DNA of 64,000 nt from positions 1,450 through 65,449 of the forward strand of contig JAFGQW010000084.1 in assembly GCA_016935485.1 (NCBI GenBank), in the 5' to 3' direction. Below are positions 8,222-59,377 of this stretch, one piece after another. Position numbers and translations under genes: made by a program. The notes beneath the pieces were generated by a model. It searched no databases. It was not told the DNA's origin and was given only the letters and a program-made list of their open reading frames with translations. Position 1 is the first letter of the stretch. Every line of letters begins with the position of its first letter. The stretch comes from Planctomycetota bacterium (GTDB taxonomy: Bacteria > Planctomycetota > JAFGQW01).

Positions 8222-8444
8222 GGGCCCGCGCGAGAGCCACGACCCGTTCTCGCGGATCCTCCCGCCGAGGTCCGCGCTGCCCGGAAGTCCGTGGCACCTC
8301 GCCGCAGGCGTCGCCGGCACGCCGGAGCGTTCGGCGTTGCCGGCACCGTGGATTCCACCCCGCCGGCCGCCGTTCCCATTCCATTCGGCGCGCCGTCGGG
8401 CATAATGGAGCGGCCGCCCCGGTCGCCCGTGAGAAGGAGTCGCC

Positions 8445-9149: not shown

Positions 9150-9151
9150 AC

Positions 9152-32382: not shown

Positions 32383-34599
32383 TCAGGCGGACGCGCCGGG
32401 ATGGGGCCTCGCAGCGACCGGCGCGCCGACGCGCCGGACCCGCTCGAGCCACGCCTCGAACGCCGCCCGCTCGGCGGCTGAGAGCGGGTGGCCGCCGTAA
32501 CAGACCGCGTAGAGCCGCTCCACGATCGGCACGAGCGGCGTCTCGACCAGGGGCTCCACGCGCGCGGCGAACTCGAGCGGCGTCTCGCCCCGGCGCGGCC
32601 GCACGCCGCGGCGCTGCAGCGCGCCGAGGAGCTCGAGAATCGGGTGGCGCACGCGGACCGGCCCGGTCTCCGGCGCGGCGGCGCCGTCCGCGGCACCGGC
32701 GGCAAGCCGCCGGCGGCGGAGCGCAACCATCGCGAGCAGCCCGCCCAGCACGACCAGCAGCACCGGCCAGCCCACCGCCTCCACGATCTCGCGGGCGCGG
32801 GCCAGCAGATCCTGGTAGAGCGTGAGCTGCGCCGCGCCACTGAAGGAGTCCTGCGCGAGCGCGAGCTCGGCATTGGCCGCCTCCAGGGGCAGCGTCTCGA
32901 ACGGAAGCGCGAGCCCGAGCGCCCCGGCGTCGCCCGCCGGCGCAGGATCGACGGCGACCCAGCCCAGCCGCTCGAAGTGGACCTCGACCCAGACGTGGGC
33001 ATCCTGGCGGCGGAAGACGAAGCCGGGAATCGGCCGCTCCCGCCACTCCCCGCCCAGGTATCCCGTCACCACGCGCGCGGCGAGATCGGCGTGGCGGCAC
33101 AGCACGGCCAGGCCGTCGGCGAACCGCTCGCAGTGGCCGGCCCGCGAACGGCACAGGAAATCCTCGGTCGGGTTGGCGCCAAACTGCACCGGCCCGAGCT
33201 CCAGTGTGTAGCGAAACGGCGGACTGCGCAGGTAGCCGACCAGCGCATCAAGCGCTTCCGTGCCGCCGCGGGCGCGCGCCACGAGCGTGCGCGCCAGGCT
33301 CGCCACCTTCTCCCGGCGGGGCCGCTCGGGGACATGGGTGTAGTGGTCCTGCTCCTCGTGCCGGGCGTGAAGCCCGTGGCGCCGCACGAGCTCCCGGACC
33401 TGCTCCCAGCCGTAGATCACCTCGCCCTCGACCCCGTAGCGGGCGCGCGGCCCGAGCGGGCGCGCGAAGACAAGCTCCTCCTCGGGGTGGCCGCGCAGCG
33501 CCCGATCGACCGCCACGCGGACGGGCCGCCCGAGGCTCACCACGTCCGCGCGGCCGTCCGGGTGCAGCGGCCGCACGTCGAGCCGGTAGCCGGCCCGCGG
33601 CCGGGGCGCCGGCCCGGGCAGGTCGACCCGCCCGCGGGCGTCCGGGCGGTGGACGCGCGGGTAGTGGGAGCCGCTCGCGGCCCAGCCCTGCTCCCGGCAC
33701 TCGTCGAGGACGTGCGACCGGAGGTAGAGCCGGCCGCCGTACTCCGGAGGCAGCTCGCGACCGTGCGCCTCGAGCCGGATGCGCACCGAGTGAACGGGCG
33801 CCGGATCCCGCCGGATCCGGCCGTGACGCGTGAGATCGAGCGCGCGGCTCGGCCCGGTCCGGAGCGAGCCGGCGCGGGAATCGCCCGGGGCCGGCTCGGC
33901 ATCGGCCTCGGCCACCGGCGCCGCGGATCCACCGAGCAGATCGAACGCACCGGTCAGCGTCGCGTAGCGCGGCAGCAGGTAGAAGACGGCGGCGCCGAGC
34001 ACCCCCAGGACCGGCATCAGGACCAGCGCGAGCCCGGCCAGCCGAAGCGCGTGGCCGCGCGGCCGCAGCGGGCGGACGCCGACCGCGTCCACCTCGCGCG
34101 CCACGGCGTACTGGAGCAGCGCGAACACCAGAAGCGGGCAGAAGGCAGCGCCGAGCAGCCAGGACGGCGTGCGCGCGAGCGTCATCCCGTAGAGGAACTG
34201 GCAGACGGCCACCAGCCCGAGCAGCATCAGCTCCTGCACGGTGCGCCGGCCCGTCCACAGCGCCGCCTGCGCCGGATACAGGATCACCAGCCCCACGATG
34301 CTCAGGCCGTCGAGCGCCGAGAAGCGGTTTGCGGACGGCTCGAGGTACGGGCGGAGCACGGCCACGAGCACGAAGTAGGCCACGACGAGAACCACCGCCG
34401 CGCCGGCCGAGAGCCGCGGCGCGAGCCACCGGTAGACGAGACAGCCCAGCAGGCTGAGGCCGAGCGGCGCCGTGACCCAGGCCGGACCGCGCACCCGGGA
34501 CAGAGCGGCCAGCGCAACCGCCGTCAGGAGGAACACGCCGACTGCAAGACCGCGCCGCCACCAGGGCGCCCGCCGTTCCTGCGTCCCCGGGGTCGTCAT
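32383..34599 (-). CDS. Transglutaminase-like membrane protein (N-terminal TM bundle, Cys-His-Asp transglutaminase core, C-terminal TM and DUF4129-like tail).
   Basis: Start at MTTPGTQ, overlapping the DUF58 stop (ATGA). Core motif (GHCERFADGLAVLCRHADLAARVVTGYL...DAHVWVEVHF...D). 738 aa. Confidence 0.8.
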   Translation of the reverse strand: MTTPGTQERRAPWWRRGLAVGVFLLTAVALAALSRVRGPAWVTAPLGLSLLGCLVYRWLAPRLSAGAAVVLVVAYFVLVAVLRPYLEPSANRFSALDGLSIVGLVILYPAQAALWTGRRTVQELMLLGLVAVCQFLYGMTLARTPSWLLGAAFCPLLVFALLQYAVAREVDAVGVRPLRPRGHALRLAGLALVLMPVLGVLGAAVFYLLPRYATLTGAFDLLGGSAAPVAEADAEPAPGDSRAGSLRTGPSRALDLTRHGRIRRDPAPVHSVRIRLEAHGRELPPEYGGRLYLRSHVLDECREQGWAASGSHYPRVHRPDARGRVDLPGPAPRPRAGYRLDVRPLHPDGRADVVSLGRPVRVAVDRALRGHPEEELVFARPLGPRARYGVEGEVIYGWEQVRELVRRHGLHARHEEQDHYTHVPERPRREKVASLARTLVARARGGTEALDALVGYLRSPPFRYTLELGPVQFGANPTEDFLCRSRAGHCERFADGLAVLCRHADLAARVVTGYLGGEWRERPIPGFVFRRQDAHVWVEVHFERLGWVAVDPAPAGDAGALGLALPFETLPLEAANAELALAQDSFSGAAQLTLYQDLLARAREIVEAVGWPVLLVVLGGLLAMVALRRRRLAAGAADGAAAPETGPVRVRHPILELLGALQRRGVRPRRGETPLEFAARVEPLVETPLVPIVERLYAVCYGGHPLSAAERAAFEAWLERVRRVGAPVAARPHPGASA

Positions 34600-35744
34600 C
34601 CGCGCCTCCTTTCGATCCAGCGCACCAGGCGCGGATCGTCGGCGCGCACCACGATCTCGTCGGGGTGCACCGGCTCCCGGGGCGGCTCGTCCAGCACGAC
34701 ATGGACCCGGCGCACCGCGTGGCGGCGGCGCCGGCGCCCGCAAGCCCGCGGCAGCGCTCCCGGTCCCGGGCCGTACCGCGCGAGCAGATCCATCGCACGG
34801 ACGAAGGTATGCGGGTGCGCGTCGACCACGGCCATGCCGGGCCGCGCGCCCTGCACCTCGAGCCGGAGCCGCACGCCCGTGCGGCGCGCCTGCTCCAGGA
34901 GCGCGGCGGTGAACGCGACCGCGCGCTCCGCCAGCGCGGCGAGCTGCGGGGTGGCGCGGCCGCGGCCGTGCAGGACGACGTCCGTCTCCCCCTCGGCCTG
35001 GGCGCGCATCTCCCGCACCACGAGCTTTCCGAGGCGCGCCGTGGCCCGCCACGAGATGCGGCGATAGCGATCGCCGGCCCGGTGGTCGCGCAGCCCGTAA
35101 AACTCGTCGTCTCCCGAGCGCACCACCTCCTCGCCGTCGCCGCGCGCGTGCGCCCGATCCGCCGCGACGAAGCGCGGCTCGAGGAAACCGGGCACGGGGT
35201 GGACGATGAGCTCCAGATGGACCGGCAGCACGGCGCGGTGCCGCACGAGGCCGAAGGGAAAGAGCGTCGTGACGCGCACCCACTCCAGCACGTACACGCC
35301 GCGCCGGGGGACCCGGTAGAGCCCCTCCACCCGCCGGCGCACCCCCACGGGGGCGTGGACGACCAGGAGGTGGCGGCCCCGGAGAAAGCCCGGCGCGATC
35401 CGGAGGCCGTGAGCGCCCAGCCAGCCCCGGCGCTTTCGCACATCGACCGTCAGCCGGAAGGGCCGGTTCGCGAGCACCCGCCGCGGCAGGTTCACGCGGA
35501 GCTCGAGCCCCCGGAGCACGGCGCGGCCGAGCGGAATCGACAGGAGCAGCAGCGGCGCCATGAACGCGCTCACGACCACGAAGGCGTTGCGGTCCCCGAG
35601 GAACCCGGCCGCCCAGAACAGCAGCGTGAACGCCAGCATTCCCTGCCCGGGTCGCGTGAGCGACCAGGAGGGCGGCCCCACGGACTCCAGGCCCGGGACC
35701 TCGTCGGGCGGCGCGCGGCGCCGGTGGCTCGCGAGCGCGATCAT
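34596..35744 (-). CDS. DUF58-family protein (vWA-like, the usual partner of MoxR ATPases).
   Basis: DUF58 signature (GDDEFYGLRDHRAGDRYRRISWRATAR). N-terminal TM hairpin. Start chosen at the ATG (MIALASH) with a GAGGAA RBS. The ORF-track start at 35783 is a GTG. 382 aa. Confidence 0.82.
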   Translation of the reverse strand: MIALASHRRRAPPDEVPGLESVGPPSWSLTRPGQGMLAFTLLFWAAGFLGDRNAFVVVSAFMAPLLLLSIPLGRAVLRGLELRVNLPRRVLANRPFRLTVDVRKRRGWLGAHGLRIAPGFLRGRHLLVVHAPVGVRRRVEGLYRVPRRGVYVLEWVRVTTLFPFGLVRHRAVLPVHLELIVHPVPGFLEPRFVAADRAHARGDGEEVVRSGDDEFYGLRDHRAGDRYRRISWRATARLGKLVVREMRAQAEGETDVVLHGRGRATPQLAALAERAVAFTAALLEQARRTGVRLRLEVQGARPGMAVVDAHPHTFVRAMDLLARYGPGPGALPRACGRRRRRHAVRRVHVVLDEPPREPVHPDEIVVRADDPRLVRWIERRRG

Positions 35745-41088: not shown

Positions 41089-43026
41089 ATGCTACACGCT
41101 CGCCGCAAGCGCCTGCTGCTCGCGATCGCCGGGGTGCTCGTCGTCCTGGGCGGCGCACTGCTCGTCTGGATGGACCGCCATCCGGTCGATGTGCCGTGGC
41201 TCGATGACCGCGACCCCGAAGCGCCATCGATCGACGCCTTCTCGAACGAGGCGGCCCCGGTCCTGCTCATCAGCTCGCTCGAGGACCTGGCCCGCGCCGC
41301 GCGCGCGCGCGACTTCGACCGCATGGACTGGAGCCTCGCCTGGCGGAACCTCCTCGAACAGGAGGTCGGGTGGTTCGCCCACCGGGAGTACGTCGAGCTC
41401 GGCGCCGAGCCGTGGACCGGACGCGCCCTGGTGATCGTCGCCCACAGCGCCATCGCCCGCTGCACGCCGGCGGAGATCGCGGAGCTCGCGGCGTTCGTCG
41501 CGGCCGGCGGCGTGTTGCTGCTGGACCGCCCCGGCCCCGCGTGGGAAGCGCTCTCCGGGCTCAGGCTCGGGCCGGAGCGCCGGCGCGAGGGCCGGATCAG
41601 CGCCGCTGCGCCGGACGTGCTGGCGCCCGAGGTCCGCGCGGAGCTCCAGCGCGCCGGGATCCCGCTGCCCGTGCGCCTCCACGCCCTGGATTCCCCGCTG
41701 GACGCGGGCCTCGAGACGCTGCTCGCATTCGACGGCGAGCCCGCCCTGGTGGCCCGCCCGGCGGGCCGCGGGGCCGTCGTCAGCGTGCTGTTCGATCTGG
41801 GCTGGCTGCTCGTGACCGTCCAGCAGGGCCGGCCCGAGCCCGACTACCGCGTCGCGAAGCGCTGGGGGTTCTACCGCCACCTGCTGGAATCGCACGACCT
41901 GGTCTGGCACGAGTCGTACCTGCGCAACGCCGTCCCCGCCGCCGACGTCCTCGAGCGCGCCGTCCTCGCCGCGGCGTGCCGCTTCGTATCGCTCCCGGTG
42001 TGGTGGGCCTTCCCCCGCGAGGCCATGGGCCTGCTCCTGATGACGCACGACGAGGACGAGTACGGCGCGGACCGGTGCCGGCTGCTGCTCGATCACGAGG
42101 TCTCAATCGGCGCGCGCTCCACGTTCTTCCTGCTGTCCGGCCGCCGCATGGAGGACGGCTGGCCGGCGGACGCGGTCCGTCACTTCGCCGCTCAGGGCGC
42201 CGATCTCGCGCTCCACTGGAACCGGCTGCCGGCCATCACCGGCCTCTGGAAACTCGAGCCGATCGCGCGTGTGTTCGCGCTCGCCGACCAGGTGGACTTC
42301 TTCCGGGAGACGCAGCGGCGGGGCGGGCTGCCCGCCGGCCCGCTGCTCAACCGCAACCACTACCTGATGTGGGCCTCGCCCGCGGAGTTCCGCGCCGGCG
42401 ACACCCACTACACGCGCACCTTCCGGATCCTCCACCGCCACGGCATCGTGATGGACTCCACCTACGGCCCCAACCGGGAGGGACGCGGCTACCTGTTCGG
42501 GACGGGGCGGCCCTTCCATCCGCTCGACGTCGACGGCAAGCACATCCCGCTGCGAGAGATGCCGTTCTTGAGCCAGGAGGACTGGGGCGGCGAGGACGAG
42601 GCCTGGTTCGGCCGGCTGTTCGCCGAGAGCGAGGCGTGGTACCACAGCGCGATCTGCTGCATCTTCCACCCGCACCTGATCGTCCGGGAGGAGGCCGGAG
42701 AGCGCCTCTGGAAATCGGTCTACGCGAGCGCCGCCCGCCACCGCCATGCGGCCGTGAGCTTCCGCGAGTATCACGACTTCCTGGAGGCGCGGCGCGCCAG
42801 CCCGCTCCGCTTCGCGCGGGCCGACGACGGCGCGCTGCGGATCGAGTGCGAGGCCGAGGGGCCCGACCTGGCCGTGCTGCTGCGCGGCACCGTGCACGCG
42901 GTCGAGCTCGACGGCCAGCCCGTCGACCGACCGGGAACCTTGTCGCTCGACGGCCAGCGCTGCACGCTCGTGGCGGTGCCCGCCGGACGGCACGTCCTCG
43001 TGATCCGGGATGGAAACAGTCGTTGA
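41089..43026 (+). CDS. Hypothetical N-terminally membrane-anchored, two-domain periplasmic protein. The first domain may be class-I glutamine-amidotransferase-like, and the second has acidic His/Asp-rich motifs, possibly hydrolase- or deacetylase-like.
   Basis: Internal Met of ORF 40990..43026 with an AGGAAGG RBS. Single TM segment (LLLAIAGVLVVLGGALLVWM). 645 aa. The domain assignments are weak. Confidence 0.45.
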   Translation: MLHARRKRLLLAIAGVLVVLGGALLVWMDRHPVDVPWLDDRDPEAPSIDAFSNEAAPVLLISSLEDLARAARARDFDRMDWSLAWRNLLEQEVGWFAHREYVELGAEPWTGRALVIVAHSAIARCTPAEIAELAAFVAAGGVLLLDRPGPAWEALSGLRLGPERRREGRISAAAPDVLAPEVRAELQRAGIPLPVRLHALDSPLDAGLETLLAFDGEPALVARPAGRGAVVSVLFDLGWLLVTVQQGRPEPDYRVAKRWGFYRHLLESHDLVWHESYLRNAVPAADVLERAVLAAACRFVSLPVWWAFPREAMGLLLMTHDEDEYGADRCRLLLDHEVSIGARSTFFLLSGRRMEDGWPADAVRHFAAQGADLALHWNRLPAITGLWKLEPIARVFALADQVDFFRETQRRGGLPAGPLLNRNHYLMWASPAEFRAGDTHYTRTFRILHRHGIVMDSTYGPNREGRGYLFGTGRPFHPLDVDGKHIPLREMPFLSQEDWGGEDEAWFGRLFAESEAWYHSAICCIFHPHLIVREEAGERLWKSVYASAARHRHAAVSFREYHDFLEARRASPLRFARADDGALRIECEAEGPDLAVLLRGTVHAVELDGQPVDRPGTLSLDGQRCTLVAVPAGRHVLVIRDGNSR

Positions 43027-43153
43027 CTCGCTTGCCCACACGGCGCCTTCCTCCCCGCTCTGTCCGGGTCCCGCACCGGGATTCGTGCGCGGCCTAAAGG
43101 CCAGCCGTAGGCGCGACGATAGGAACAGCGAAGCGAGGAGCCCTGCTGCGACC

Positions 43154-45490
43154 ATGGAGCCGCATGTACCCGCGCCACCCCCAGCGCCCGATCCCGGGGA
43201 CCGGCTGCCGGCGGTAACCGCCTTCCTCTCCAGCTTGCTCAAGCTGGTGCGTATCCTCCGGCTCTACCCCGCCGGCCATCCGCTGATCGCGACGGCGACG
43301 GCAGAGCTGCGCGGTGCGCGGGCGGCCCTGGACGAGACAACGCACATCGCCGTGGACCACCGGACCGGCTCCCTGGTTCTCGACGGCACGCGGGTCGTGC
43401 CGCTGCCCCGGAGCCTCGGCCTCCTCGACAAGCTCCTCATCGAGCAGAAGGCGGACGTCCTGGCGATCAGCGGCGCCGCCGGCGAGACCGAGATCGTGTC
43501 CCTGGCCGCGCGGCTCGCCCGGCCCGAGGATCCGGCGGCGGCGGACCGCGACCGCGACGACCGTCACCCGGGAGTGCAGCTCGTAGCGGCCGGTGTCATG
43601 CCCGTCCTCGACCCGGCACTCGCCGCGGCCGTGGCGGCCCCGTTCTCGCTTGCGCGACTGCTCGCGGCGGCCTTTCCCTTCCGCACGCCCACCGCAAGCG
43701 TTCCGATCCCGTTCCAGGCCTGGGCGTGCCCTTCCCTGGACGGCTCCTCCTCGGCCCTCGAGCAGGTCCACGACGTGGCGCAGACCCTGCACCGCGATCC
43801 CGCCGGCCTCGCCCGCCGGGTGATCGCCGCCGCCGGAGAGCGGCTCGCAGGCGCCGAGAACGACGCCCCCGAGGACCTGCTGCGCGCGCTCGCGCACGGC
43901 CTCGAGCGGCTGGTCCTGGCGCGCCTGGACGAGGATGGCGGCGGCCTCGCCGAGGCGCGCGACACCGTGAACCGGGTCGTCGCCCCGCTCGCGCCCGGCT
44001 TTCTCCGGCGCCTGCTCCCCACCGGATCGGACGGCGCCTCCCGGGCGGACAGACTCCTCCAGCACTTCTCGCCGCCGACCCGCATCCGCCTCCTCAAGGC
44101 GGCGGTCCGCGACGGCGGGCTGGACCGCACGGAGTTCTCTCGCCTCCTGGAGGCGCTCACCGCCGACGCCGCGGACGAGGAGAACCTGTTGACGCTCCTC
44201 TCCCAGGAACTCGACCGTGACACCGCGCCCGCCGCCGAGCGCGAGCCGTGGCTTGCCGTCATTGGCTCGAGCTGCCCGCGGCGCCGGCGCCGCGCCGTGG
44301 TGCTTCTCCTCGCCGGCGACGCCGAGACCGCCGCGCGGGTCCAGGCCGCGCTCGAGGAGCACGGCCTCACGGTCCACGTGCTGAGCAACGGCGCGCGGCT
44401 GGTGGGCGAGGTGGAACGGCTCGCGCCGGACGTCGTGATCCTGGACCCGCAGCAGCGGGGCACTCCGGGGCTGCCGCTCATCGCCGCCCTGCGCCGGGCG
44501 GGCAGCCGCCGGCGCGCGGTTCCCCTCGTCGTGTTCACCCACGAGGAGTCGTTTCGCCACGACTTCGAGGTCATGAGCTACCCCGGGTGCCGGTTCCTCC
44601 TCGCCGACGAGGGGCTGGATCGACTGCGGGCATGCCTCGACGAGATGCTGGCCGCGGAGCCACCGCCCGTCTCCACCGCCGGGCGCCCCGTGCCGAGCAA
44701 CTACCGGCCGGCTTCCGAGATCGCCCGCGGCCACCTCTACGTGCCCCGGTTCGAAATCCTCACCTTCTTCGAGCCCGGCACCGGCGAGACGACGACCTTC
44801 CTCGACATCGTTCCGCTCACCGCGAGCCGCACGGTGATGCTGCTTGCCGACGGTTTCCGGCCGGACGACGGCCGGGACGACACGGCCGTTGCCGTCCGCG
44901 CGGCAATGCGCGAGCTGATGGACTCGGGAGCCGAGCCCCGGGCGCTCATCGACGCCCTGAACACGCTCTTCCACGAGCACTTCGCCGGCCGGCCGCTCAT
45001 CACGGCGCACGCGGTCCTGGTCGATTCCGAACGGCCGGCGATCACCAGCTGCCTTGCCGGCGGCGTGCGACCGATCCGGATTGACGCGCTCGGGGACAGC
45101 GAGGAGATCGCTCTTCCCACCGGAATCGTGCTCGGTTTCTCACCCGCCGGCGTCTTCAAGCACACGCTGCAGGAGCGCGTGCTGCCGGTCGGCGCGGGCG
45201 ACAGCGTGCTGATCTTCTCGCACGGCCTGGCCCGGACGCTCGGCGAGGGCGAGGAGCAGCGGGCCTTTCGCCGCATTCGCCGCGAGATGGCGCTGGCGTA
45301 CCACGAGACGCGCGCCCCGGCCTCGCCGTTGCTGCTTGCACGTGACCGGATCGCCGCGGCGGTCCAGGGGGCTGGGGAGGCAGCCACCGATCGCGCCGCC
45401 ATCTGGATCCGCAACCTCGAGCGCCGGGCGCCCTCCCGCCCGACGACCCGGCGGCGTCCCGCGCCGGCACGCCGGACAGCGGCGCCATGA
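43154..45490 (+). CDS. Response-regulator receiver domain fused to a PP2C/SpoIIE-type phosphatase (RsbU-like), with a ~350-aa N-terminal region of unknown function.
   Basis: REC segment (AVVLLLAGDAETAARVQAALEEHGLTVHVL...DVVILDPQQRG...PLVVFT). PP2C motifs (TFLDIVPL...MLLADGFRPDDGRDDTAVAVRAAM...GDSVLIFSHGL). The start is uncertain (ATG 43154 versus ATG 43010). Confidence 0.75.
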   Translation: MEPHVPAPPPAPDPGDRLPAVTAFLSSLLKLVRILRLYPAGHPLIATATAELRGARAALDETTHIAVDHRTGSLVLDGTRVVPLPRSLGLLDKLLIEQKADVLAISGAAGETEIVSLAARLARPEDPAAADRDRDDRHPGVQLVAAGVMPVLDPALAAAVAAPFSLARLLAAAFPFRTPTASVPIPFQAWACPSLDGSSSALEQVHDVAQTLHRDPAGLARRVIAAAGERLAGAENDAPEDLLRALAHGLERLVLARLDEDGGGLAEARDTVNRVVAPLAPGFLRRLLPTGSDGASRADRLLQHFSPPTRIRLLKAAVRDGGLDRTEFSRLLEALTADAADEENLLTLLSQELDRDTAPAAEREPWLAVIGSSCPRRRRRAVVLLLAGDAETAARVQAALEEHGLTVHVLSNGARLVGEVERLAPDVVILDPQQRGTPGLPLIAALRRAGSRRRAVPLVVFTHEESFRHDFEVMSYPGCRFLLADEGLDRLRACLDEMLAAEPPPVSTAGRPVPSNYRPASEIARGHLYVPRFEILTFFEPGTGETTTFLDIVPLTASRTVMLLADGFRPDDGRDDTAVAVRAAMRELMDSGAEPRALIDALNTLFHEHFAGRPLITAHAVLVDSERPAITSCLAGGVRPIRIDALGDSEEIALPTGIVLGFSPAGVFKHTLQERVLPVGAGDSVLIFSHGLARTLGEGEEQRAFRRIRREMALAYHETRAPASPLLLARDRIAAAVQGAGEAATDRAAIWIRNLERRAPSRPTTRRRPAPARRTAAP

Positions 45491-45909
45491 GTCTGCGCGC
45501 GGCCGAGCGCCGGCTCCGCGCGCTCTACCGGCGCGTCGATCGGCAGGTCGCCGCCGCCGGACCCGTCTGCACCCGGTCCGGGCGCTGCTGCGATTTTGCC
45601 CGCTCCGGCCTGACGCTCTTCGCCACCGCGCTCGAGACGGACCTGGTCCTCGCCGCGCACGCGCCCCCGGCCCCGGAGCGCGCCGGGGCGTGCCCGTTCC
45701 AGCGGCACGGCCTCTGCACGATGCGCGCGCTCCGGCCGCTGGGGTGTCGGGTCTACTTCTGCGATCCCCGCTACCTCGCGACGGCCATGAGCGGCATCGC
45801 CGAGTCCGCCCAGCGCGCACTCAGGCAGATTCACGAGGAGCACGGCGTCCCCTACCGCTACGCCCCGTTCCTGGAGCTCCTCGCGCGACCGCGGCCGGCA
45901 CCAGCGTGA
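45487..45909 (+). CDS. YkgJ/UPF0153-family protein (putative Zn/Fe-S-binding CxxCxxCC domain).
   Basis: Its ATG overlaps the upstream stop (ATGA). Motifs CTRSGRCC, CPFQRHGLC and GCRVYFCDPRY. 140 aa. Confidence 0.72.
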   Translation: MSLRAAERRLRALYRRVDRQVAAAGPVCTRSGRCCDFARSGLTLFATALETDLVLAAHAPPAPERAGACPFQRHGLCTMRALRPLGCRVYFCDPRYLATAMSGIAESAQRALRQIHEEHGVPYRYAPFLELLARPRPAPA

Positions 45910-46036
45910 GGACGCGCACGGCACGGCGCCTGCGCCCGGCAATCCGCCGCCCGCCGGCGCGCTCCGGGGCGCCTCGGACGTCGGAGCGCGCGCCCGAACG
46001 GTTCGTCCCTCCCCACCGCCGGGTATAATCCGCGGC

Positions 46037-48058
46037 ATGGATCCGCATCGACCGCGCGCGGCCGAGGCCCCGGCTGCCGGACCCGCTCGGGCTCATCTGG
46101 GGTTCGTCTGCCTCACGCTGGCGGTCGTGCTCGCCGCCACGCTGGTCGCATTCGACGAGGCCCCCGGGCTGTGGGGGCTCGGCGGCTGGGGCGATGCGCG
46201 CCTGCCCTTCCTGGTGGCCGCCGCGGCCGCGCTGCTCGTCCTCGTGGTCGTCAGACCGCTCGCCGCGCGGCTCGGCGCGGCGGTGCTGGCCGTTCCGCTG
46301 CCGGTCCGCGGCATCGGCCCCTTCGTGGTCGGGCTCCTCGTCGTGCCCGTCTTCTACGCGCTGCGCACCTCGGTGCTGGTCGGCGACTGGCGTCTCGTGC
46401 TCGAACGTCTCGCGCTCGATCTCTACTATCCCTCCAGCCTCTGGACGGACTACCTGTTCCGGCTGGCCCAGGCGGCCGGCGGCCGGTCCGGGTTCTTCCC
46501 CGACGACGCCATCGCGCTGGTATCCGCGGCGAGCGGCGGCGTGTTCGTCGCCTTCCTGCTCCGCCTCGCCGGCGAGCTGGGGGACACGCCCGGCCGCCGC
46601 CGCTTCCTCTTCTGGTTCCCGCTCGTGAGCGGCGCCACCCTGATCTTTTTCGGCCACCTCGAAGCCTACGGCCCCGTGGCCGCCGGACTGGTCGTGTTCC
46701 TCGATCTGCTGGTGCGCGCCCGCCGCGGCCGCCTGCACCTTGCACTGCCGGGATTCGCGCTGGGCGCCGCGGTCTGCCTCCACGGCGTGGCCCTGCTGTG
46801 GCTCCCCCCGTACCTGGTGGCGGTCGTCCGCTGGAGCGCGACCCACCGCCTGCGCCGCCTGCTCCTCAGCGTGCTCCTGTTCCTGCTGCCCGTGGCGGTC
46901 TCGGCCGCGGTTCTCTTCTTCGTGCACTGGGGCGCCCGCCCGCCCGACGACCCGGCGCTGCGCCACGGGACCTTTCTCGGCGCCGCGGGCCAGGGGCTGA
47001 TCACGCCCCTCACCCGCGCGGCGGCGTCGGAGGCGCACGTCTACGTGCTCGCGGAGGCGCGCCACTGGATCGACCGGTGGAACGTGCTGCTGCGGCTCGC
47101 GCCGATCGCGCTGGTGCTCGCCCTGCCGGCACTGGGGGCGCGCGGCCGGCGGCGCTTTCCGCGCGACCCGATCCGGGCCGACCTCCACGACCACCTCGCC
47201 CTGACGCTGTGCCTCTCGCTGCTGTGGCTGGCGGTGCACAACCTCAGCTACCCCGCCGCCCACGACTGGGACCTCTTCGCCCCGATCGGCTTCCTGCTCG
47301 CGCTGCTCGCCGCGAGCGCGCCGGGCGTCCCCCATCCGGAGCGCACCGCCGGCTGGCTCGCGCTCGCGGCCTTCACGGCGCTGCCCTGGTGGGCGACGGC
47401 GATCGCGCCGCCGGCCTACAAGGCCGCGGCGGCGCACTACGCGCTGGCACGCGTCTACCAGGAGATCGGCGGACCGCAGGCGGAGGCCGCCTTCCTGCAC
47501 CACCTCGACCGGGCCGCCTCCCGCGGCACCCGCCCGCATCGGCTCGCGGTCAAGACGCTCGGCGTGTATTACGCCTCCCGCGGCCAGCCGCAGGCCGAAC
47601 GCTGGCTCCAGCTCGGCGCCGACGCCTACCCCTGCGACGCCGAGATCCGCGCCAATCTCGGGCTTTACCACTACAGCCTGAAGAAGTACGCTCCCGCCCT
47701 GGAGCATCTGCGCGCCGCGGTCGCGCTCGCGCCCGACGCCCCGCTCTTTCACCGCGATCTTGCCCGGCTCCTCTTCGAGATCCAGGACCACGAGGAGGCC
47801 TATGCCCACTTTCGCCGCGCGGTGGAGCTCCGGCCCGACGACCGCGAGCTCGTGGACGACGCGCTGCGGGCGGCCTGGAAGGTGAACCGGCCGCGCGAAG
47901 GCCTGGCCTTCCTTGCCCGGCTGCACGAGCACCACCCCGAGGACCGCGAGATTCTCGAGCGCCTCTTCGAACTCGAGAAGCAGGCGGGCTCGCTCGAGAA
48001 AGCGCGCCACTACCAGCAGAAGCTGATCGAGCTCGCCAGCCGCCGCCGCGACGAGTGA
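46037..48058 (+). CDS. Polytopic membrane protein with C-terminal TPR repeats (O-antigen-polymerase / TMTC-like architecture).
   Basis: 673 aa. About 11 TM helices followed by a ~230-aa TPR-like helical tail (YALARVYQEIGGPQAEAAF...LGLYHYSLKKYAPALEHLRAAVALAPD...). Confidence 0.62.
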   Translation: MDPHRPRAAEAPAAGPARAHLGFVCLTLAVVLAATLVAFDEAPGLWGLGGWGDARLPFLVAAAAALLVLVVVRPLAARLGAAVLAVPLPVRGIGPFVVGLLVVPVFYALRTSVLVGDWRLVLERLALDLYYPSSLWTDYLFRLAQAAGGRSGFFPDDAIALVSAASGGVFVAFLLRLAGELGDTPGRRRFLFWFPLVSGATLIFFGHLEAYGPVAAGLVVFLDLLVRARRGRLHLALPGFALGAAVCLHGVALLWLPPYLVAVVRWSATHRLRRLLLSVLLFLLPVAVSAAVLFFVHWGARPPDDPALRHGTFLGAAGQGLITPLTRAAASEAHVYVLAEARHWIDRWNVLLRLAPIALVLALPALGARGRRRFPRDPIRADLHDHLALTLCLSLLWLAVHNLSYPAAHDWDLFAPIGFLLALLAASAPGVPHPERTAGWLALAAFTALPWWATAIAPPAYKAAAAHYALARVYQEIGGPQAEAAFLHHLDRAASRGTRPHRLAVKTLGVYYASRGQPQAERWLQLGADAYPCDAEIRANLGLYHYSLKKYAPALEHLRAAVALAPDAPLFHRDLARLLFEIQDHEEAYAHFRRAVELRPDDRELVDDALRAAWKVNRPREGLAFLARLHEHHPEDREILERLFELEKQAGSLEKARHYQQKLIELASRRRDE

Positions 48059-48083: not shown

Positions 48084-50858
48084 TCAGGGCACGCCCGCTT
48101 CACCCGCCAGGTAGCGAGCGCAGCGCAGGCCGAGGAACTTCGTGCGCAGGACCGGCGGGTAGCCGACCCGCGTGTTCACGCGCAGAAACTCGGGCGAGTG
48201 GAACCAGGACCCGCCCCGGACCAGGTAGCCGCCGGCCTCGGGATGGGGCTCGAGGCACCACTCCATGACGTTTCCGGCCATGTCGTGGCAGCCGAACGGC
48301 GAGCGCCCTTGCGCCAGGGACATCACCGGAAGGGGTCCGGCCGCGTCGCTCCCGAGGTAGTTGGCGTAGTGCCGCTGGGGCGCGCCGTCGCCCCACGGAT
48401 AGACGGCCTCGGGCACGCCGCGCGCCGCCAGGACCCAGGTGGCGTCGGTCATCAGGCTCTTGCCGGCCCACCGGGCGTAGGCGTAGGCGTCCCACCAGTC
48501 CACCCCGACCACGGGCAGGTCGTCGGCCGCCAGCGCGGGATCTCCCCAGAACGCCGGCGTGCGGTCCTTGCCGGTCGGCTCGGAGGGATGCGAGTAGCGG
48601 CGCGGTTCGGCCGCCTCGCGGCTCCACTCGAGGAAGCGCCGGTACTGCGCGTTGGTGACCTCCGTGACATCCACGAAGAACGGCTCGGTCGTCGAGCGCC
48701 GCGGTCGGCCGCGCCCGTCGCGCACCACGAACTCCACCCCGGGAACGCGCACCATGTAGGACCGGTCCTTCAGCGAGAAGAACTTGTCGCCGCGCGGCTC
48801 GAGCTCGGGCGGCACCCACCCGGGGTGGTGGAGCTGGATCCGGGTGATCTCGCTCCGGTGTCCAGCCCGGTCCTCCACCGCGAAGCTCAGCTCAGGGTGG
48901 AGTCCGCTCACCGGCACCGTGAATGTGAAGCGCCGCTCCTCGAGGGTCACGTCCTGCTTCTCGGGTTCGCACCAGACCGCCGCGATCGGCTCGCTCGCCT
49001 CGCCGCGCACCACGACCTGCGAGGCCTCGAGCACGGCGCCGGACCGCGGCTCGAACGCGGCGATCGTCGGCGGCCGGGTGTCGACGTGCACCGCGAGCTC
49101 GCGCACCAGCAGGTTGTCGCCGTGATCCCGGATCTCGATGCGGAACGTGTGGTCCCCCTCGGCGAGCCCGCGGCAGGCGAACGTGGACACGCCCTCGGCG
49201 TCCGGGGGCGCCACCTCGGCGCCCAGGCGGACCTCCTTGACGGGGTACTGCCCCAGGTGGACCTGGATCTCGCACTCCGCGGCGGTCAGCAGGGGTCCGG
49301 GAGGCGCCAGCGTGATCCGGAGCGCCTGGCCGATGCTCTCGTGAATGCGGTCGCGGATGGCGAGCAGGCGGTCGCGCGATTCCTCGCCGAATCTCAGCCC
49401 CAGGCGATACGTCTCCTGCGCCTCGAGCAGCCGCCCTTGCGCCGCCAGGGCGTCGCCCCAGAGCGCGTAGACGTGGGAGATTCCCTCACTCACCTCGGCG
49501 CGATCGGCGACGAGTTTCCCGGCCTCCTGGTACGCGTCGAGCGCAGCCGCGAATCTTCGCGCGCCGAGCTGCTGCGCCGCGTGCGCAAGCGCCGCGGCGA
49601 AGCGCTCCTCGGGCGTCGGCGCCGCCGGAGGCCCGGGCGGAGACGGTACCTCGGAAGCCGCCGCAGGGGCCGGCGCGGCGGGCGTCGGCGCGACAGCGGC
49701 CGGCGCGACCGGCGCCGCGGCAGGCGTCGCCGCGGCAGGCGGCGCCGGCGGACGCGCCGTCACGGACGCCGGCACCGGCCGCGGCTTATGCCGCGCGGTC
49801 TCGGCCCGGGCCGCAATCGCCCGGTCCGGCGGGGTCTGCCGGCGCTGGTGCTGGTAGAAGAACACTGCCCCCGCCACCGCCACCACCGCCACGGCAGCCG
49901 CCGCCACCAGCCCGAGCGGCCGGGGCCGCCGCGGCGGCCCCGCGCCGACCGCCGCCGCCGGGACCTCCAGGCAGGCGCGCACCTCGGCGGCCGTCTGGAA
50001 ACGCTCGTCGGGGTGCTTGGCCAGGCAGCCGAGGATGACCTGCTCGAGAGGCTCCTCGATGGAGGCGACGAGCTCGGAGGGCGCTTGCGGGACTTGGTGT
50101 ACGTGCGCGTACGCCACGTTGCCCTCGACGAACGGTGGCCGCCCGGTCCGGAGCTCGTAGAGGATGCAGCCCAGCGCGTAGAGATCGCCGCGATGGTCCA
50201 TGCCCTGGTGGAGCAGGTCCTCGGGCGGGGCGTAGGCAACCAGGCGGGCCCGGTTGGTGACCTCGCGATTCAGGGCCGTACGCTGCTCGCGGAGCAGGCG
50301 GGCCAGTCCGAACCCGCGCACCTTGATCGAGCCGTCGTCGAGGATCCAGACGTGCTCCGGACGCAGGTCGCGGTGGATGATCCCCGCCGCGTGCGCGGCA
50401 TCGAGCGCGCGGAGGATCTCGAGGCCGATAGCGTCGGCCTCGGCGGGCGCAAGCTGGCCGCCCTGGGCGAGAAAGGCGGCGAGATCCTGGCCGTCGAAGC
50501 GGTCCTCCACCAGGTAGCCGCACCGCTCGCCGGTCACGTAGTCCAGCACCCGGACGATGGCGTCGTCCCGGAGCTGGGTGAGGATCTCGACCTGCATCAT
50601 GAGCTGCTTCTCGAGTCGCTCGCTGGAGGTCAGCTCGGCCGGCAGGCGCGTGAGCACCACCTCGCGGTTGAGCTCGTGGTCGAAGGCCGGACGGGTCTCT
50701 CCGATGGCGCTCATCCCGACGGGACCGGTGGCCTCGAAACGCCCGAGCAGCAGCGATTCACGCGAGGAGGCCTCGGCGCCCGCTTTCCGCCCCCCGGGAG
50801 AAGACCCGGTCGCTCCACCGGCACCCGCGTTTGCCTCGGACGGTCTTGCTTCGGACAT
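48084..50858 (-). CDS. Membrane-spanning fusion protein. An N-terminal cytoplasmic Ser/Thr-kinase-like domain with degenerate catalytic motifs (a predicted pseudokinase) is followed by a TM helix, a Pro/Ala-rich linker, and a C-terminal FGE-sulfatase (formylglycine-generating-enzyme-like) domain.
   Basis: Start at MSEARPS with an AAGGAG RBS. Kinase subdomains are recognisable, but VAIK becomes VVLTRL, HRDLKPEN becomes HRDLRPEH, and DFG becomes GFG. TM segment LVAAAAVAVVAVAGAVFFY. FGE motifs RGGSWF and LGLRCA. 924 aa. Confidence 0.82.
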   Translation of the reverse strand: MSEARPSEANAGAGGATGSSPGGRKAGAEASSRESLLLGRFEATGPVGMSAIGETRPAFDHELNREVVLTRLPAELTSSERLEKQLMMQVEILTQLRDDAIVRVLDYVTGERCGYLVEDRFDGQDLAAFLAQGGQLAPAEADAIGLEILRALDAAHAAGIIHRDLRPEHVWILDDGSIKVRGFGLARLLREQRTALNREVTNRARLVAYAPPEDLLHQGMDHRGDLYALGCILYELRTGRPPFVEGNVAYAHVHQVPQAPSELVASIEEPLEQVILGCLAKHPDERFQTAAEVRACLEVPAAAVGAGPPRRPRPLGLVAAAAVAVVAVAGAVFFYQHQRRQTPPDRAIAARAETARHKPRPVPASVTARPPAPPAAATPAAAPVAPAAVAPTPAAPAPAAASEVPSPPGPPAAPTPEERFAAALAHAAQQLGARRFAAALDAYQEAGKLVADRAEVSEGISHVYALWGDALAAQGRLLEAQETYRLGLRFGEESRDRLLAIRDRIHESIGQALRITLAPPGPLLTAAECEIQVHLGQYPVKEVRLGAEVAPPDAEGVSTFACRGLAEGDHTFRIEIRDHGDNLLVRELAVHVDTRPPTIAAFEPRSGAVLEASQVVVRGEASEPIAAVWCEPEKQDVTLEERRFTFTVPVSGLHPELSFAVEDRAGHRSEITRIQLHHPGWVPPELEPRGDKFFSLKDRSYMVRVPGVEFVVRDGRGRPRRSTTEPFFVDVTEVTNAQYRRFLEWSREAAEPRRYSHPSEPTGKDRTPAFWGDPALAADDLPVVGVDWWDAYAYARWAGKSLMTDATWVLAARGVPEAVYPWGDGAPQRHYANYLGSDAAGPLPVMSLAQGRSPFGCHDMAGNVMEWCLEPHPEAGGYLVRGGSWFHSPEFLRVNTRVGYPPVLRTKFLGLRCARYLAGEAGVP

Positions 50859-51116
50859 GGAGGGATCTCCTTGCGCATCGCCTGCCAGCATCGGAAGCGC
50901 GGCCACACCGTGGGGCGCGGCCACACCGGAGTTTTTCGGCATGGGCGCCCTCCAGCCTGAGCCCGGCCCGGGTTCCCGCCCCGCGCCGGCCCGGCCGCTT
51001 CCGCCGGCGGGCGCACCTGGTAGAATGCCGCGGCAGTCCGCTTCGAGAGACGGCAGCGATCCGGAGCGCGGCAAGCCCGGGCATGCCGTGACCTTCGGAA
51101 CCGGAGGCGCCAGACG

Positions 51117-51476
51117 ATGCCGCACGTGACGATCGAGGGCGCGCTCGACCTCCGGGCGTTCTCAGGCGAGTTCATCCCCGTCGTCGAGCAGCTCCCCTGG
51201 GGCCTCCTCCGGATCCGCAACGTCTACCTCGACGCCCGCGGTCGCACGCTGCTGTTCGAGGCCCTGGCCATGGAAAGCGGGGCGGGGCGCAGTTTCCTGG
51301 TCCGCGTCGAGACCAAGCGATCCGACCGCCACATGGTGCGCCTCGACCCGATCGTGCCGGTGGACCGGACCCGCGGGGTCCGGTCGGCCGTGGTCTGGGT
51401 GGCGCGGAGGCTCCGCGACCGCAACCCCGGCTGCGCGTTCGGCACCACCAACCTCGCGGAGCTCGCCGGGTCCTGA
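51117..51476 (+). CDS. Hypothetical small protein (119 aa).
   Basis: ORF with coding-like composition, divergent from the kinase-FGE gene. No motifs recognised. Confidence 0.4.
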   Translation: MPHVTIEGALDLRAFSGEFIPVVEQLPWGLLRIRNVYLDARGRTLLFEALAMESGAGRSFLVRVETKRSDRHMVRLDPIVPVDRTRGVRSAVVWVARRLRDRNPGCAFGTTNLAELAGS

Positions 51477-52975: not shown

Positions 52976-53452
52976 TCACGCGCCTTCCTCGAACTCCTTC
53001 AAGACGTCGTGGATCTCCGCCTTCTTGCGGGCCTTGCGCATGAACTGACAGTAGAGCTTGTTGCGCACCATCGAGGAGATCTTCTTCAGGATGTCGAGAT
53101 GCACGTCGGCCTGGTCCAGCGGCGCGAAGAAAAGGAAGAACAGGTAGACCGGCTCGCCGTCGACGGCGTTGAAGTCGATGCCCTTCTCGCTGCGCCCGAT
53201 GGCGCCCAGGACGTCGTCGATGAGATCGGTCCGGATGTGCGGGATCGCCACGCCGCCGCCGATTCCCGTCGAGCCCTCCCGCTCGCGCGCCAGCAGCTCC
53301 GCGACCAGGTCATCCACGACCGAGCCGGGGAAGGCCTCGTTCGCCACCAGCAGCTCGACCAGTTCCCGGATCACGCCCTCGGCGTCCGTCGCCTTGAGCT
53401 TCTCGGTGATGACTTTCCGGGAGAATACGTTGTGGAGTTTGTAGTTCTTCAT
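52976..53452 (-). CDS. ptsN: PTS EIIA component of the fructose/nitrogen-regulatory type (PtsN-like).
   Basis: Start at the internal ATG (MKNYKLHNVF). Phosphorylatable His context (GGGVAIPHIRT). 158 aa. Confidence 0.8.
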   Translation of the reverse strand: MKNYKLHNVFSRKVITEKLKATDAEGVIRELVELLVANEAFPGSVVDDLVAELLAREREGSTGIGGGVAIPHIRTDLIDDVLGAIGRSEKGIDFNAVDGEPVYLFFLFFAPLDQADVHLDILKKISSMVRNKLYCQFMRKARKKAEIHDVLKEFEEGA

Positions 53453-53564
53453 CTGCTCCGAGGCCTCTCCACCCAACCGCTCGCCATCCAGGCCGCTCCC
53501 GCCGTGATTCCGGGTCGCACACGCACCGCGCGGTCCGGCCGGCACCGGTGCGGTCCGGCCGGCG

Positions 53565-54011
53565 CTAGTGGTTGTCCAGCAGCTCCCAGAGGTCGTTCAC
53601 CTCCAGGTTGCGAATCGTGACGTGGTTGAACTCCTGCTCCTGGGCCAGCCGCGCGATCCGGGCCAGCATCTCGGTGTGGATCTGGATGCCGATCCTGGGC
53701 GAGATGAACTGGAAGACGAGATGGACCGGCCGGTCGTCCGGCGCCGCCCACGCGATGCCATCCACGCTCCGTCCCAGCACCGCCCGCACGTGCGCGACGC
53801 TCGTCACCCGGGCGTGCGGGATGGCCACGCCGTGGCCGATCGCCGTGGAGGCGAGCCGCTCGCGCTCGAGGATCTCCTCCTCGATCCGACCGGCCTCCGC
53901 GGCATCCATGCCGCCCTGCACCGCAAGTCCGTGCATCAGCTCGCGGATGGCCTCGAACCGATCCGACGCCTTGAGGTCGTGAATCTTCAGCTCGATCTTG
54001 TGGTCCGCCAT
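53565..54011 (-). CDS. Second PTS EIIA(Fru/Ntr-type) paralogue.
   Basis: 148 aa. His context (GHGVAIPHARV). Same fold pattern as the previous gene. Confidence 0.8.
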   Translation of the reverse strand: MADHKIELKIHDLKASDRFEAIRELMHGLAVQGGMDAAEAGRIEEEILERERLASTAIGHGVAIPHARVTSVAHVRAVLGRSVDGIAWAAPDDRPVHLVFQFISPRIGIQIHTEMLARIARLAQEQEFNHVTIRNLEVNDLWELLDNH

Positions 54012-54084
54012 GCCTGGCTCCTGGTTCGCTGGATTCCGGCTCGCCTATCGTGCCGCGTTGCCCCCCCTGCGGGCAGCGATTATG

Positions 54085-54140
54085 ACCGCAAATTAAGCCG
54101 GATCCAGAGACCTTGTTCAACTCCTTTTTCACCCGACCTC
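54085..54140 (-). promoter_or_regulatory. AT-rich island in a >70% GC background, immediately upstream of the EIIA genes. It is a candidate internal promoter or operator.
   Basis: The segment gattatgaccgcaaattaagccggatccagagaccttgttcaactcctttttcacc is visibly AT-rich. It contains TTGAAC and CATAAT hexamers on the minus strand, but their spacing is not canonical. Confidence 0.3.
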
Positions 54141-54174
54141 CAGCCGGCCTCACCGCGTGCCGGCCGCACGCCAC

Positions 54175-55920: not shown

Positions 55921-56136
55921 GACTCTCCTTGTTGCATCGATCGGGCACGATCTCAAGGGCGGCGTGCGCCCGGCCGTGGAAATGGCGCCGCGTAAAGGTT
56001 CCCGCGCCGGCTTTGACGATGGAAGCCCTGCGGACTACGATGGCCCGGGTCCGGCCCCGCGCTCCCGGTCGGGCCCGCGAGGCGCCGGGTCGGCAGACCG
56101 GAGCCCGATGGACCGCGCTGCCGGCGAAGGCCAGCC

Positions 56137-58925: not shown

Positions 58926-59068
58926 CGGTCGTTGAACTTGTCCCAGATCGCCCGACCCCGGCGCCGACGGCGCCTCAGGATCGCCCGGCCGCCCCGGGTC
59001 TTCATCCGGGTGCGGAACCCGAACCGCTTCTTCGCCTTCAAGGTGGACTTGCGTATGCGAACTTTCAT
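58922..59068 (-). CDS. rpmH: 50S ribosomal protein L34.
   Basis: 48-aa product MKVRIRKSTLKAKKRFGFRTRMKTRGGRAILRRRRRRGR... matches the L34 consensus core (HGFRxRMxTxxGRxVLxRRRxKGR). Convergent with rlmN, overlapping by 4 nt. Confidence 0.72.
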   Translation of the reverse strand: MKVRIRKSTLKAKKRFGFRTRMKTRGGRAILRRRRRRGRAIWDKFNDR

Positions 59069-59377
59069 GGGCGCACCCGATCTGAGTGGCGTCACTCCCT
59101 GGGCCGGGCTCGACGGGATCCCGCCCGGTGCTCCGCGCCTCCGGACCGCTCGGCCGGGCGCGGGGAGTGCAAGCATAGCCCGGAATCCCCGCTTGACCAG
59201 CGTTTTCGGCGCGTGCCGCCCCGCCCGGTCGGCGCGCGCCCGCGCCCTGCCCGGGGCATTCCGCTTTCGCCTCGAAGATGCTACGCTGGTCGAGGACTGG
59301 CCGGTCGCGGGGGGCCGGGGGCAGGCGCCCTGTGGCGCGCCTTGAAGAACGACCACGAAGCCGAGGAGAGCGGAATC

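Follow-up and report, generated by a model that had tools for sequence, protein, structure and literature searches.

A planctomycete receiver-PP2C protein with a degenerate active site and the conserved linkage of its gene to a cysteine-cluster protein family

Introduction

The locus described here raises the question of what a protein resembling an RsbU-type phosphatase does when its gene is translationally coupled to that of a small Cys-rich protein. It comprises four plus-strand open reading frames (ORFs), referred to as genes A, B, C and D (span 41089–48058), within a 64,000-nucleotide stretch of a Planctomycetota bacterium genome (GenBank assembly GCA_016935485.1, contig JAFGQW010000084.1), which in its entirety is called the window below; the letters Y and M denote two further genes that occur in related loci. 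An initial annotation of this cluster proposed a signalling module in which B, an active receiver (REC)-PP2C phosphatase of the RsbU type controlled by phosphorylation, would provide a partner-switching-like output with a redox or metal input from C, taken to be a YkgJ protein. The PP2C metal-binding Asp residues, the conservation of the PP2C-YkgJ gene pair and the presence of STAS or GHKL partners were named there as the points on which this proposal should be judged.

A comparative analysis of the sequence, predicted structure and genomic context of these genes leads to a different picture. Judged by its aligned motifs, B appears to be a pseudo-enzyme in its clade, with a SpoIIE-type PP2C fold but without a complete active site, and the cluster is what the window retains of a gene block, ancestrally ordered A-B-Y-C-M-D, that is conserved in one uncultured Planctomycetota lineage. 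In our preferred reading, to which we assign a probability of roughly 45%, B would act without catalysis, as a switch or adaptor of the RssB kind; it may bind C, and its gene sits inside an envelope-glycan gene block.

Results

Gene B carries a PP2C fold with a degenerate metal site

The predicted product of B consists of an N-terminal region of ~375 aa followed by a REC-like domain and a SpoIIE/PP2C domain. By score, the last of these belongs to the SpoIIE family (PF07228; 48.8 bits at a Pfam cut-off of 25), and an AlphaFold2 model of the protein (predicted local distance difference test, pLDDT, 80) retrieved RssB structures as the best Foldseek match (3f7a/3eq2, E 1e-13; also 6od1, 8twd and 8t85), followed by the structures of Rv1364c-RsbU, RsbX and SpoIIE. 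A phmmer search with B against PDB sequences found no solved PP2C. The PP2C fold suggested by the initial annotation is thus supported; the phosphatase activity implied by the same label is not, as two catalytic Asp residues are missing.

Relatives of B were collected by exhaustively searching 1.8 billion representative proteins (a word-index search gave only one relative). Near full-length close relatives proved to be very few (P0002 and P0123, 38–41% identical); a more divergent one (P0124) is 34% identical and 750 aa long, and a shorter form within the same clade (P0126) is 28% identical and 620 aa long. In addition, ~30 distant relatives (720–790 aa, 22–26% identity) have all three regions in common with B, and the few of them that carry source names are assigned to Planctomycetota or Planctomycetes; the family is taken to be planctomycete-specific. 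A metagenome scan using the B-clade alignment yielded three loci. The canonical planctomycete proteins P0128–P0156 share the N-terminal domain-REC-PP2C architecture, and the REC and PP2C regions of one of them (P0130, residues 369–744) align to nearly the whole of Pseudomonas aeruginosa RssB with E 1e-19.

Comparison of nine B-clade members with the distant canonical relatives in MAFFT alignments locates the degeneracy of the metal site (Table 1). The GGDxxD motif (canonical GGDYxD) reads TTTFLD in the window protein, with T546-T547-T548 in place of GGD, and its first Asp, aligned with T548, is lost in the entire clade, where T, V or a similar residue replaces it in 9/9 members. The TDG motif (canonical YTDGV) reads FSHGL, with H690 in place of the Asp, and this position, which is not conserved within the clade, is occupied by H, T, Y or R among the nine. 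At DVSGxG (canonical DVSGKG) the window protein reads ADGFRP, retaining D566-G567, and the Asp is D, E or G across the clade; at DDxT it reads TDRAAI, and the first Asp, D746 in the window, is kept in all nine. The set of PP2C metal-coordinating acidic residues is thus incomplete in B, and the same two losses recur in every clade member. The metal ligands of SpoIIE are D628, the carbonyl of G629, D746 and D795 (Bradshaw et al., PMC5468089); the equivalents of D628/G629 and D795 are retained in B as D566-G567 and D746, and the equivalent of SpoIIE D746 is His690. Scores against the SpoIIE model follow the same division, with 37–57 bits in the B clade vs. 135–155 bits in the canonical relatives. 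If the non-catalytic reading of B is right, the label "SpoIIE family protein phosphatase" attached to it is probably wrong in its enzymatic sense.

The receiver and the N-terminal region of B

The receiver is recognized less readily from its sequence than from its predicted structure. The match to PF00072 (27.1 bits) remains below the gathering score of 30.2, the best PDB sequence match being the LuxO receiver (E 1e-5); the fold is predicted with pLDDT >90 and aligns to the LuxO and FrzS receivers. An Asp (D431) occupies the acceptor position, and T462 the conserved Thr/Ser position. The conserved receiver Lys, kept in all other clade members, is replaced by Ala484 in the window protein, and the acidic pair of beta1, in place of which the clade has a DP(D/N/H)P-type motif, is reduced there to G-D with one acidic residue only. 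Apart from the window protein, just one member (locus L082) has Asp at the acceptor position; the residue is Glu or Asn in 7/9 clade members, and Glu in some canonical relatives as well. In view of this variation of the acceptor and of Ala484, receiver phosphorylation is unlikely to be a conserved feature of the clade.

The N-terminal region of B, initially described as a ~350-aa domain of no recognized function, covers ~375 residues, which have no match in Pfam, NCBIfam or PDB sequences, a profile search of PDB included. In the structure model they resolve into a confident alpha/beta subdomain (residues 14–145), a disordered Ala/Pro-rich linker (~146–206) and a helical bundle (~200–373). The subdomain contains an LYPxxHP motif, of which Y38 and H42 show the highest conservation in the region, without exception in the N-terminal alignment A4 and almost without exception in A3. 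B is taken to be cytoplasmic; the possibility that it is a membrane protein was considered and rejected, since its single hydrophobic stretch (143–161) falls in the low-confidence Ala-rich linker.

Gene layout in the window

The four-gene cluster is real. In a window of ~72% GC all four genes have a coding-like composition, with GC content of 0.89–0.94 at third codon positions (GC3) vs. 0.49–0.60 at second positions (GC2), and homologues exist for each of them. The ATGA in which the stop codon of B overlaps the start codon of C can be read directly from the sequence and is equally real. The distance between A and B had been given as a short gap or an overlap, of which only the gap stands: the stretch 43010–43153 has a GC3 of 0.69 vs. 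0.90 downstream and the NCBI call for B is 778 aa, so that the start of B is the ATG at 43154 and not at 43010, and A and B are accordingly separated by 127 nucleotides (nt). No Rfam RNA family was found in the window, and a scan of the intergenic gaps found neither sigma-70-like promoters nor terminators.

Table 1. Positions of the genes, domains and residues of the cluster, counted from the first letter of the window.
Feature	Position	Strand	Product	Remark
Gene A	41089–43026	+	645 aa	GC3 0.94
Gene B	43154–45490	+	778 aa	Start set by GC3 and NCBI protein call
N-terminal region of B (residues ~14–373)	43193–44272	+		
Receiver-like domain of B	44291–44653	+		PF00072 match sub-threshold
D431 of B	44444–44446			Receiver acceptor position
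Ala484 of B	44603–44605			Position of conserved receiver Lys
PP2C/SpoIIE-fold domain of B	44711–45424	+		Metal site degenerate (MAFFT alignments with canonical relatives)
T546-T547-T548 of B	44789–44797			In place of GGD
D566-G567 of B	44849–44854			Retained
H690 of B	45221–45223			In place of the TDG Asp
D746 of B	45389–45391			Retained
ATGA, B stop/C start overlap	45487–45490	+		Read from sequence
Gene C	45487–45909	+	140 aa	GC3 0.91
CxxSGRCC motif of C	45568–45591			C-T-R-S-G-R-C-C
Residue 42 of C	45610–45612			Leu in the window
Gene D	46037–48058	+	673 aa	
TPR region of D	~47414–48058			C-terminal
Ser/Thr kinase + FGE-sulfatase-like fusion	48084–51125	-	1013 aa	Converges on D

Gene C belongs to a large Ser-variant Cys-cluster family

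The product of C is a soluble protein with seven Cys residues, three of which lie in the motif C28-x2-S31-G-R-C34-C35, followed by C69, C77, C87 and C92. Its initial assignment as a YkgJ protein with a CxxCxxCC motif did not withstand closer comparison: the canonical C-x2-C-x2-C-C motif is not present, its second Cys being replaced by an invariant Ser, and the match to PF03692 (YkgJ) amounts to 13.8 bits (E 0.1), short of the cut-off of 23. Any match to this model was obtained for only 4/22 family members (best E 0.024). The family to which C does belong has at least 1114 members of 133–165 aa and gives 409 matches in GTDB representative genomes; of the best 80, nearly all carry a Planctomycetota label (among them Gemmataceae, Isosphaeraceae and Phycisphaerales). 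C28, S31, G32, C34, C35, C69, C77, C87 and C92 are invariant in 120/120 aligned members. No NCBIfam family exists for C (or for A), and the C-family profile found no related solved structure among PDB sequences.

There are signs of a remote relationship to YkgJ proteins. In an hhalign comparison with canonical YkgJ neighbours (E 0.012, low probability), all Cys motifs fall in register, Ser31 is placed on the second YkgJ Cys, and the later Cys and RP..C motifs follow in the same order. C resembles the YkgJ/UPF0153 proteins in being small and Cys-rich and in the order of motifs (C..(C/S)G.CC ... C.F ... C..Y/R..RP..CR), and differs from YkgJ in its invariant Ser, in an extra invariant Cys92 and in a sub-threshold Pfam score. 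As far as these alignments go, C would be a distant Ser-variant relative of YkgJ-type proteins, too weakly related to bear their name. It probably binds an Fe-S cluster or Zn, and some family members are named "Fe-S-cluster containing protein" by JGI. FliB, which methylates flagellin lysines and has a [4Fe-4S] cluster and a CX4CX3CC motif, illustrates that related Cys motifs can hold such a cluster (PMC8598068); unlike FliB, C has no extension of methyltransferase size.

One position of C departs from the family pattern in the window. Residue 42 is Leu there (GLTLF), His in 117/120 family members (GHTLF) and Gln in P0004, the nearest relative. The substitution falls in the lineage where Y has disappeared from the window, and this may be a lost metal or contact residue.

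The window holds a reduced copy of a conserved gene block

The genomic context of C was surveyed in 83 loci, namely 80 GTDB genomes (the best 80 of the 409 matches) together with L001, L082 and L084, in which C was located by tblastn and hidden Markov model anchoring. A canonical YkgJ gene, Y (~140–170 aa, CxxCGxCC; PF03692 47.5 bits in L086), is found upstream of C in 58/83 loci, immediately so in 48 and within 5 kb in 10 more; it is not in the flanks of C in the remaining 25/83. Beyond Y, the genes next to C depend on the family, being BamB/PQQ-like in Gemmataceae, HU-like in Isosphaeraceae and FTCD_C in Phycisphaerae, and homologues of A, B and D accompany C in just one of the 80 GTDB loci (L021).

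The loci of A, B and C homologues define the block. Each related locus with B has B-Y-C, and a longer order is visible where the contig reaches far enough. The order A-B-Y-C-M-D is complete in L001, L085 and L086/87; L021 has A-B-Y-C-D without M, L093 has B-Y-C-M-D, L082 and L094 have B-Y-C, and L091/L092, which carry the nearest relatives of the window C (68% identity), have Y-C-M. Overlaps of 4 nt join B to Y and Y to C in L086/L087, and Y to C in L091. The order B-Y-C is kept even though B diverges to 33–48% identity, and in the P0126-type lineage (B 26–31% identical) Y-C-M lies 7.5 kb downstream of B. Thus, in L001, L021, L082, L085, L086/87, L093 and L094 C is preceded by Y and not by the PP2C gene, which does not bear out a conserved PP2C-YkgJ pair in the sense of the initial annotation.

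No Y or M homologue occurs anywhere in the 64-kb window, which is the only locus seen without these two genes and the only one in which B is directly joined to C. Since the window alone among the related loci lacks Y, its B/C ATGA junction is a derived state that arose through the loss of Y. The surroundings of the block have changed in part as well. An extracytoplasmic function (ECF) sigma factor gene and a Ser/Thr kinase gene precede it in L001, L085, L086 and L087 and are missing from the window; the kinase/FGE-sulfatase gene found beyond D, in the opposite orientation, in L085, L086 and L087 is present in the window (Pkinase E 7.5e-34, FGE-sulfatase E 1e-37) and is split into two separate genes in L085.

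Three further observations concern Y and C. (i) The Y-C tandem is conserved across Planctomycetota (e.g., L035 9539–10378, and L048 9666–10378 in Zavarzinella formosa DSM 19928). (ii) In several Gemmataceae loci other genes stand between Y and C, in the form of two small ones (~110 aa) or of a larger pair (~650 aa and 445 aa) (L007, L019, L049; L034, L044), which by eye resemble toxin-antitoxin and DUF1553/DUF1501-type genes. (iii) Database gene calls for Y of 109–111 aa start past the CxxCGxCC motif (L001 12586–12921, L085 15592–15921, L094 638–973). The open frame of Y in L001 extends upstream to include this motif (RFRCTRCGRCCSGGPGYVWVTVEE), so that the true length of Y is ~140–170 aa, as called in L086.

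Genes A, D and M are envelope-associated candidates

The predictions that A is membrane-anchored and that D combines a membrane domain with TPR repeats both hold. A has a single N-terminal transmembrane (TM) anchor (residues 9–27) after a basic N-terminus, and a large extracytoplasmic part. Within the latter, a DUF4350/GH42M-like domain (~residues 110–235) scores 28.2 bits with DUF4350, below the cut-off of 30.4, a profile of the A family weakly matches the C-terminal domain of an endo-beta-mannanase (7bob, E 0.003), and a C-terminal domain, to which no family was assigned, has invariant His/Asp residues (THDED, HWNR, FHPH). A has 29 detectable relatives. Its orthologues (57–63% identical) always lie upstream of B, and its remote homologues (33–39% identity) stand beside Wzx-like flippases with no B nearby. 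In 2/3 loci these remote homologues are tandem paralogues (L089 7878–11830, L090 7977–12044), and the L089 pair belongs to a polysaccharide cluster that also contains GT2, Wzx-like Polysacc_synt and DUF2079 genes.

D is polytopic, with at least nine TM segments ahead of its TPR region, and has orthologues of 39–59% identity in the same position in L001, L021, L085 and L086. M is likewise polytopic (514–522 aa) with an invariant FPLDDSW near its N-terminus; its profile gave nothing meaningful among PDB sequences, and hhalign detected no significant relation of M to D or to the DUF2079 protein. The only hints on the membrane domains of M and D, which might be of the GT-C glycosyltransferase type, are a faint AftB-type match (E 0.0035) and the DD motif of M. 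The anchoring of A, its polysaccharide-locus relatives and the polytopic nature of M and D suggest an output in envelope glycan assembly.

Kinase and PP2C genes adjoin C in other lineages

In five loci without Y, a Hanks kinase gene immediately precedes C in the same orientation, 24–150 nt away (L054 8791–10402, L058 8778–10390, L075 5115–6772; also L055 and L070; kinase score in L054, 168 bits). The C proteins of these five loci are 47–74% identical, and this low identity implies that the adjacency is old; the background amounts to 18 kinase ORFs in 1233 kb. In L069 (Phycisphaerales, 7839–10471), the gene directly upstream of Y-C encodes a canonical SpoIIE PP2C of 446 aa (164 bits) with no receiver. 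These arrangements are at most suggestive of a link between C and Ser/Thr signalling proteins in two lineages besides that of the window.

Discussion

Relation to known systems

Escherichia coli RssB is the ClpXP adaptor for sigma-S and is inhibited by the anti-adaptors IraD, IraM and IraP. It is also the established case of a PP2C pseudo-phosphatase adaptor that is bound by small anti-adaptors (PMC5468089; PMC6546054). Its chains 6od1, 8twd and 8t85 are among the top fold matches of B. B shares with it the architecture of a receiver followed by a PP2C fold in which catalytic Asp residues are missing and the presence of small proteins as candidate regulators or partners, the latter being for B a parallel of gene context only. 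The differences are substantial: B has the additional ~375-aa N-terminal region, keeps the C-terminal strand region with D746, and has a receiver without the conserved Lys, the acceptor Asp being absent from most of its orthologues; its candidate partners are Cys-cluster proteins rather than Ira proteins, a role in sigma-S/ClpXP proteolysis is without support, and the sequence similarity of the two proteins is below phmmer detection. The best structural match of B is P. aeruginosa RssB, a REC-PP2C protein with an intact active site (3eq2/3f7a). This protein and the canonical planctomycete relatives P0128–P0156 keep GGDxxD, DVSGxG, TDG and DDxT, and the B clade does not.

With SpoIIE, RsbU and RsbP, B shares the PF07228 fold and an N-terminal regulatory region ahead of it; it differs from them in its degenerate active site and in having a receiver in place of RsbU-N or PAS. 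Unlike the partner-switching phosphatases, it is not accompanied by a STAS substrate or a GHKL kinase, neither of which was found in Pfam scans of nearly all window genes, a search limited to the window.

The gene contexts of the canonical planctomycete relatives also differ from that of B and are unrelated to it (after ParB; near EF-G; near FHA/MshEN genes). In L095 (7126–10379), the gene of the active-type family member starts at the last base of the ParB gene, and tpiA, yicC and gmk come after it; the neighbours of the canonical members in L096 and L097 are quite different from these.

A non-catalytic switch and its alternatives

We favour the reading of B as a conformational switch or adaptor that would work through the binding of partner proteins and not as a phospho-regulated phosphatase. 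Its most likely stoichiometric partners would be the co-translated Cys-cluster proteins, i.e., Y and C in the relatives and C alone in the window, in a role comparable to that of the small anti-adaptors which bind E. coli RssB. In such a scheme C could report the iron or redox state, and the output would concern the assembly of envelope glycans. That B-(Y)-C are held together in this lineage, and that C stands beside kinases or PP2C elsewhere, makes a non-catalytic signalling link between B and C plausible; to this extent the initial idea of a signalling module can be retained, without its phosphatase and partner-switching part.

Several observations weigh against this interpretation. In the window protein, H690 might in principle still serve as a metal ligand. 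None of the three loci of canonical B-family members (L095, L096, L097) has Y, C, A or D nearby, and the Y-C pair lacks a nearby PP2C or kinase gene in at least 70 loci, so that the function of Y-C may be independent of B. The PP2C gene of L069 is absent from four sister loci (L060, L073, L078, L080), where FTCD_C, DUF1579 or other genes take its place. As to the output, the membrane domains of M and D matched no known family, and the case for an envelope-glycan role comes mainly from the remote homologues of A.

The main rival, which we consider somewhat unlikely, is that synteny exists here without a shared mechanism: Y-C would be a housekeeping Cys-cluster pair unrelated to B and merely co-transcribed with it, and the B/C overlap of the window would be a scar of the Y deletion. 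The breadth of the C family (at least 1114 relatives, 409 matches in GTDB representatives) and the presence of Y beside C in 58/83 loci with other neighbours varying by family fit this account, as do the unrelated contexts of the canonical B relatives and the restriction of the direct B-C join to the window. It accounts less well for the persistence of B-Y-C with 4-nt overlaps at 33–48% B identity and of Y-C-M within 8 kb of B in the P0126-type lineage (26–31%), for the retention of C and its coupling to B after the loss of Y, and for the Ser/Thr kinase or PP2C genes that adjoin C in two further lineages. The same neighbours could be taken to mean that C itself is a target of Ser/Thr phosphorylation, for example at the invariant Ser31 or at Thr78, with kinases writing and active PP2C proteins erasing the mark, the dead PP2C of B binding or shielding modified C, and C in the role that a STAS protein has elsewhere. 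This we regard as improbable. Ser31 is invariant in 120/120 members exactly where YkgJ proteins have Cys, and Hanks kinases (five divergent loci), an active-type PP2C (L069, ahead of Y-C) and a pseudo-PP2C (the window clade) are all found upstream; however, most C loci have neither a kinase nor a phosphatase neighbour, the arrangement of L069 is known from one genome only, and Ser31 may instead be structural or a cluster ligand. A broader version, in which C would represent a phospho-regulated metal or Fe-S family that forms, with a Hanks kinase, a PP2C and the dead B, a new partner switch linking iron or redox state to envelope glycan, is quite improbable.

Finally, the model from which this analysis started, with B as an active, phosphorylation-controlled phosphatase, a partner-switching-like output and a YkgJ-based redox or metal input, has become very improbable. 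It could draw on the above-threshold SpoIIE score (48.8 bits), on D431 at the acceptor position and the retained D566-G567 and D746, on the genuine ATGA coupling to C, and on the [4Fe-4S] cluster of FliB as a precedent for related Cys motifs (PMC8598068). Yet neither the GGD nor the TDG Asp is present in the window protein or in any other clade member, orthologues do not conserve the acceptor Asp, and Ala takes the place of the receiver Lys in the window. The Pfam-scanned window genes include no STAS antagonist and no GHKL anti-sigma kinase, and C falls outside PF03692, its motif being without the second Cys. With both the loss of the metal-binding Asp residues and the pairing of C with Y in orthologous loci, this model fails the tests that were stated for it.

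Significance

Full-text literature searches found no description of this gene arrangement. REC-PP2C pseudo-phosphatases as such are already known from RssB; new in B are the N-terminal domain of no known family and the occurrence in a different phylum. If the non-catalytic reading of B is true, B would be the second, independent bacterial REC-PP2C pseudo-phosphatase after the gammaproteobacterial RssB, and one for which active relatives from its own family are available for comparison. It would come from a phylum whose Ser/Thr signalling repertoires are very large. That C repeatedly stands behind kinase or PP2C-type genes offers a directly testable hypothesis. C itself represents a large uncatalogued family of >1100 members that lacks a Pfam model and is invariant at nine motif residues, and its usual pairing with a canonical YkgJ provides a handle on the poorly understood YkgJ/UPF0153 superfamily.

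Other features of the window

A reading of the region as a defence island or mobile element was considered and rejected, the context being one of ordinary chromosomal genes (phosphotransferase system (PTS) EI/EIIA, RlmN, GlgC, PurF). Four large ORFs of 800–881 aa with a strong coding signal (13908–16553, minus strand; 22140–26863 and 32488–35067, plus strand) have no Pfam match at E ≤0.001. A 432-aa ORF at 58922–60220 (minus strand) has a low GC3 (0.74) and a ribosomal protein L34 match confined to its last ~40 residues; the true gene is probably a short rpmH lying within an over-extended frame. Two adjoining PTS EIIA(Ntr)-type genes lie beside the gene of PTS enzyme I (52976–55956, minus strand), which has the look of a remnant of a regulatory PTS in this planctomycete.

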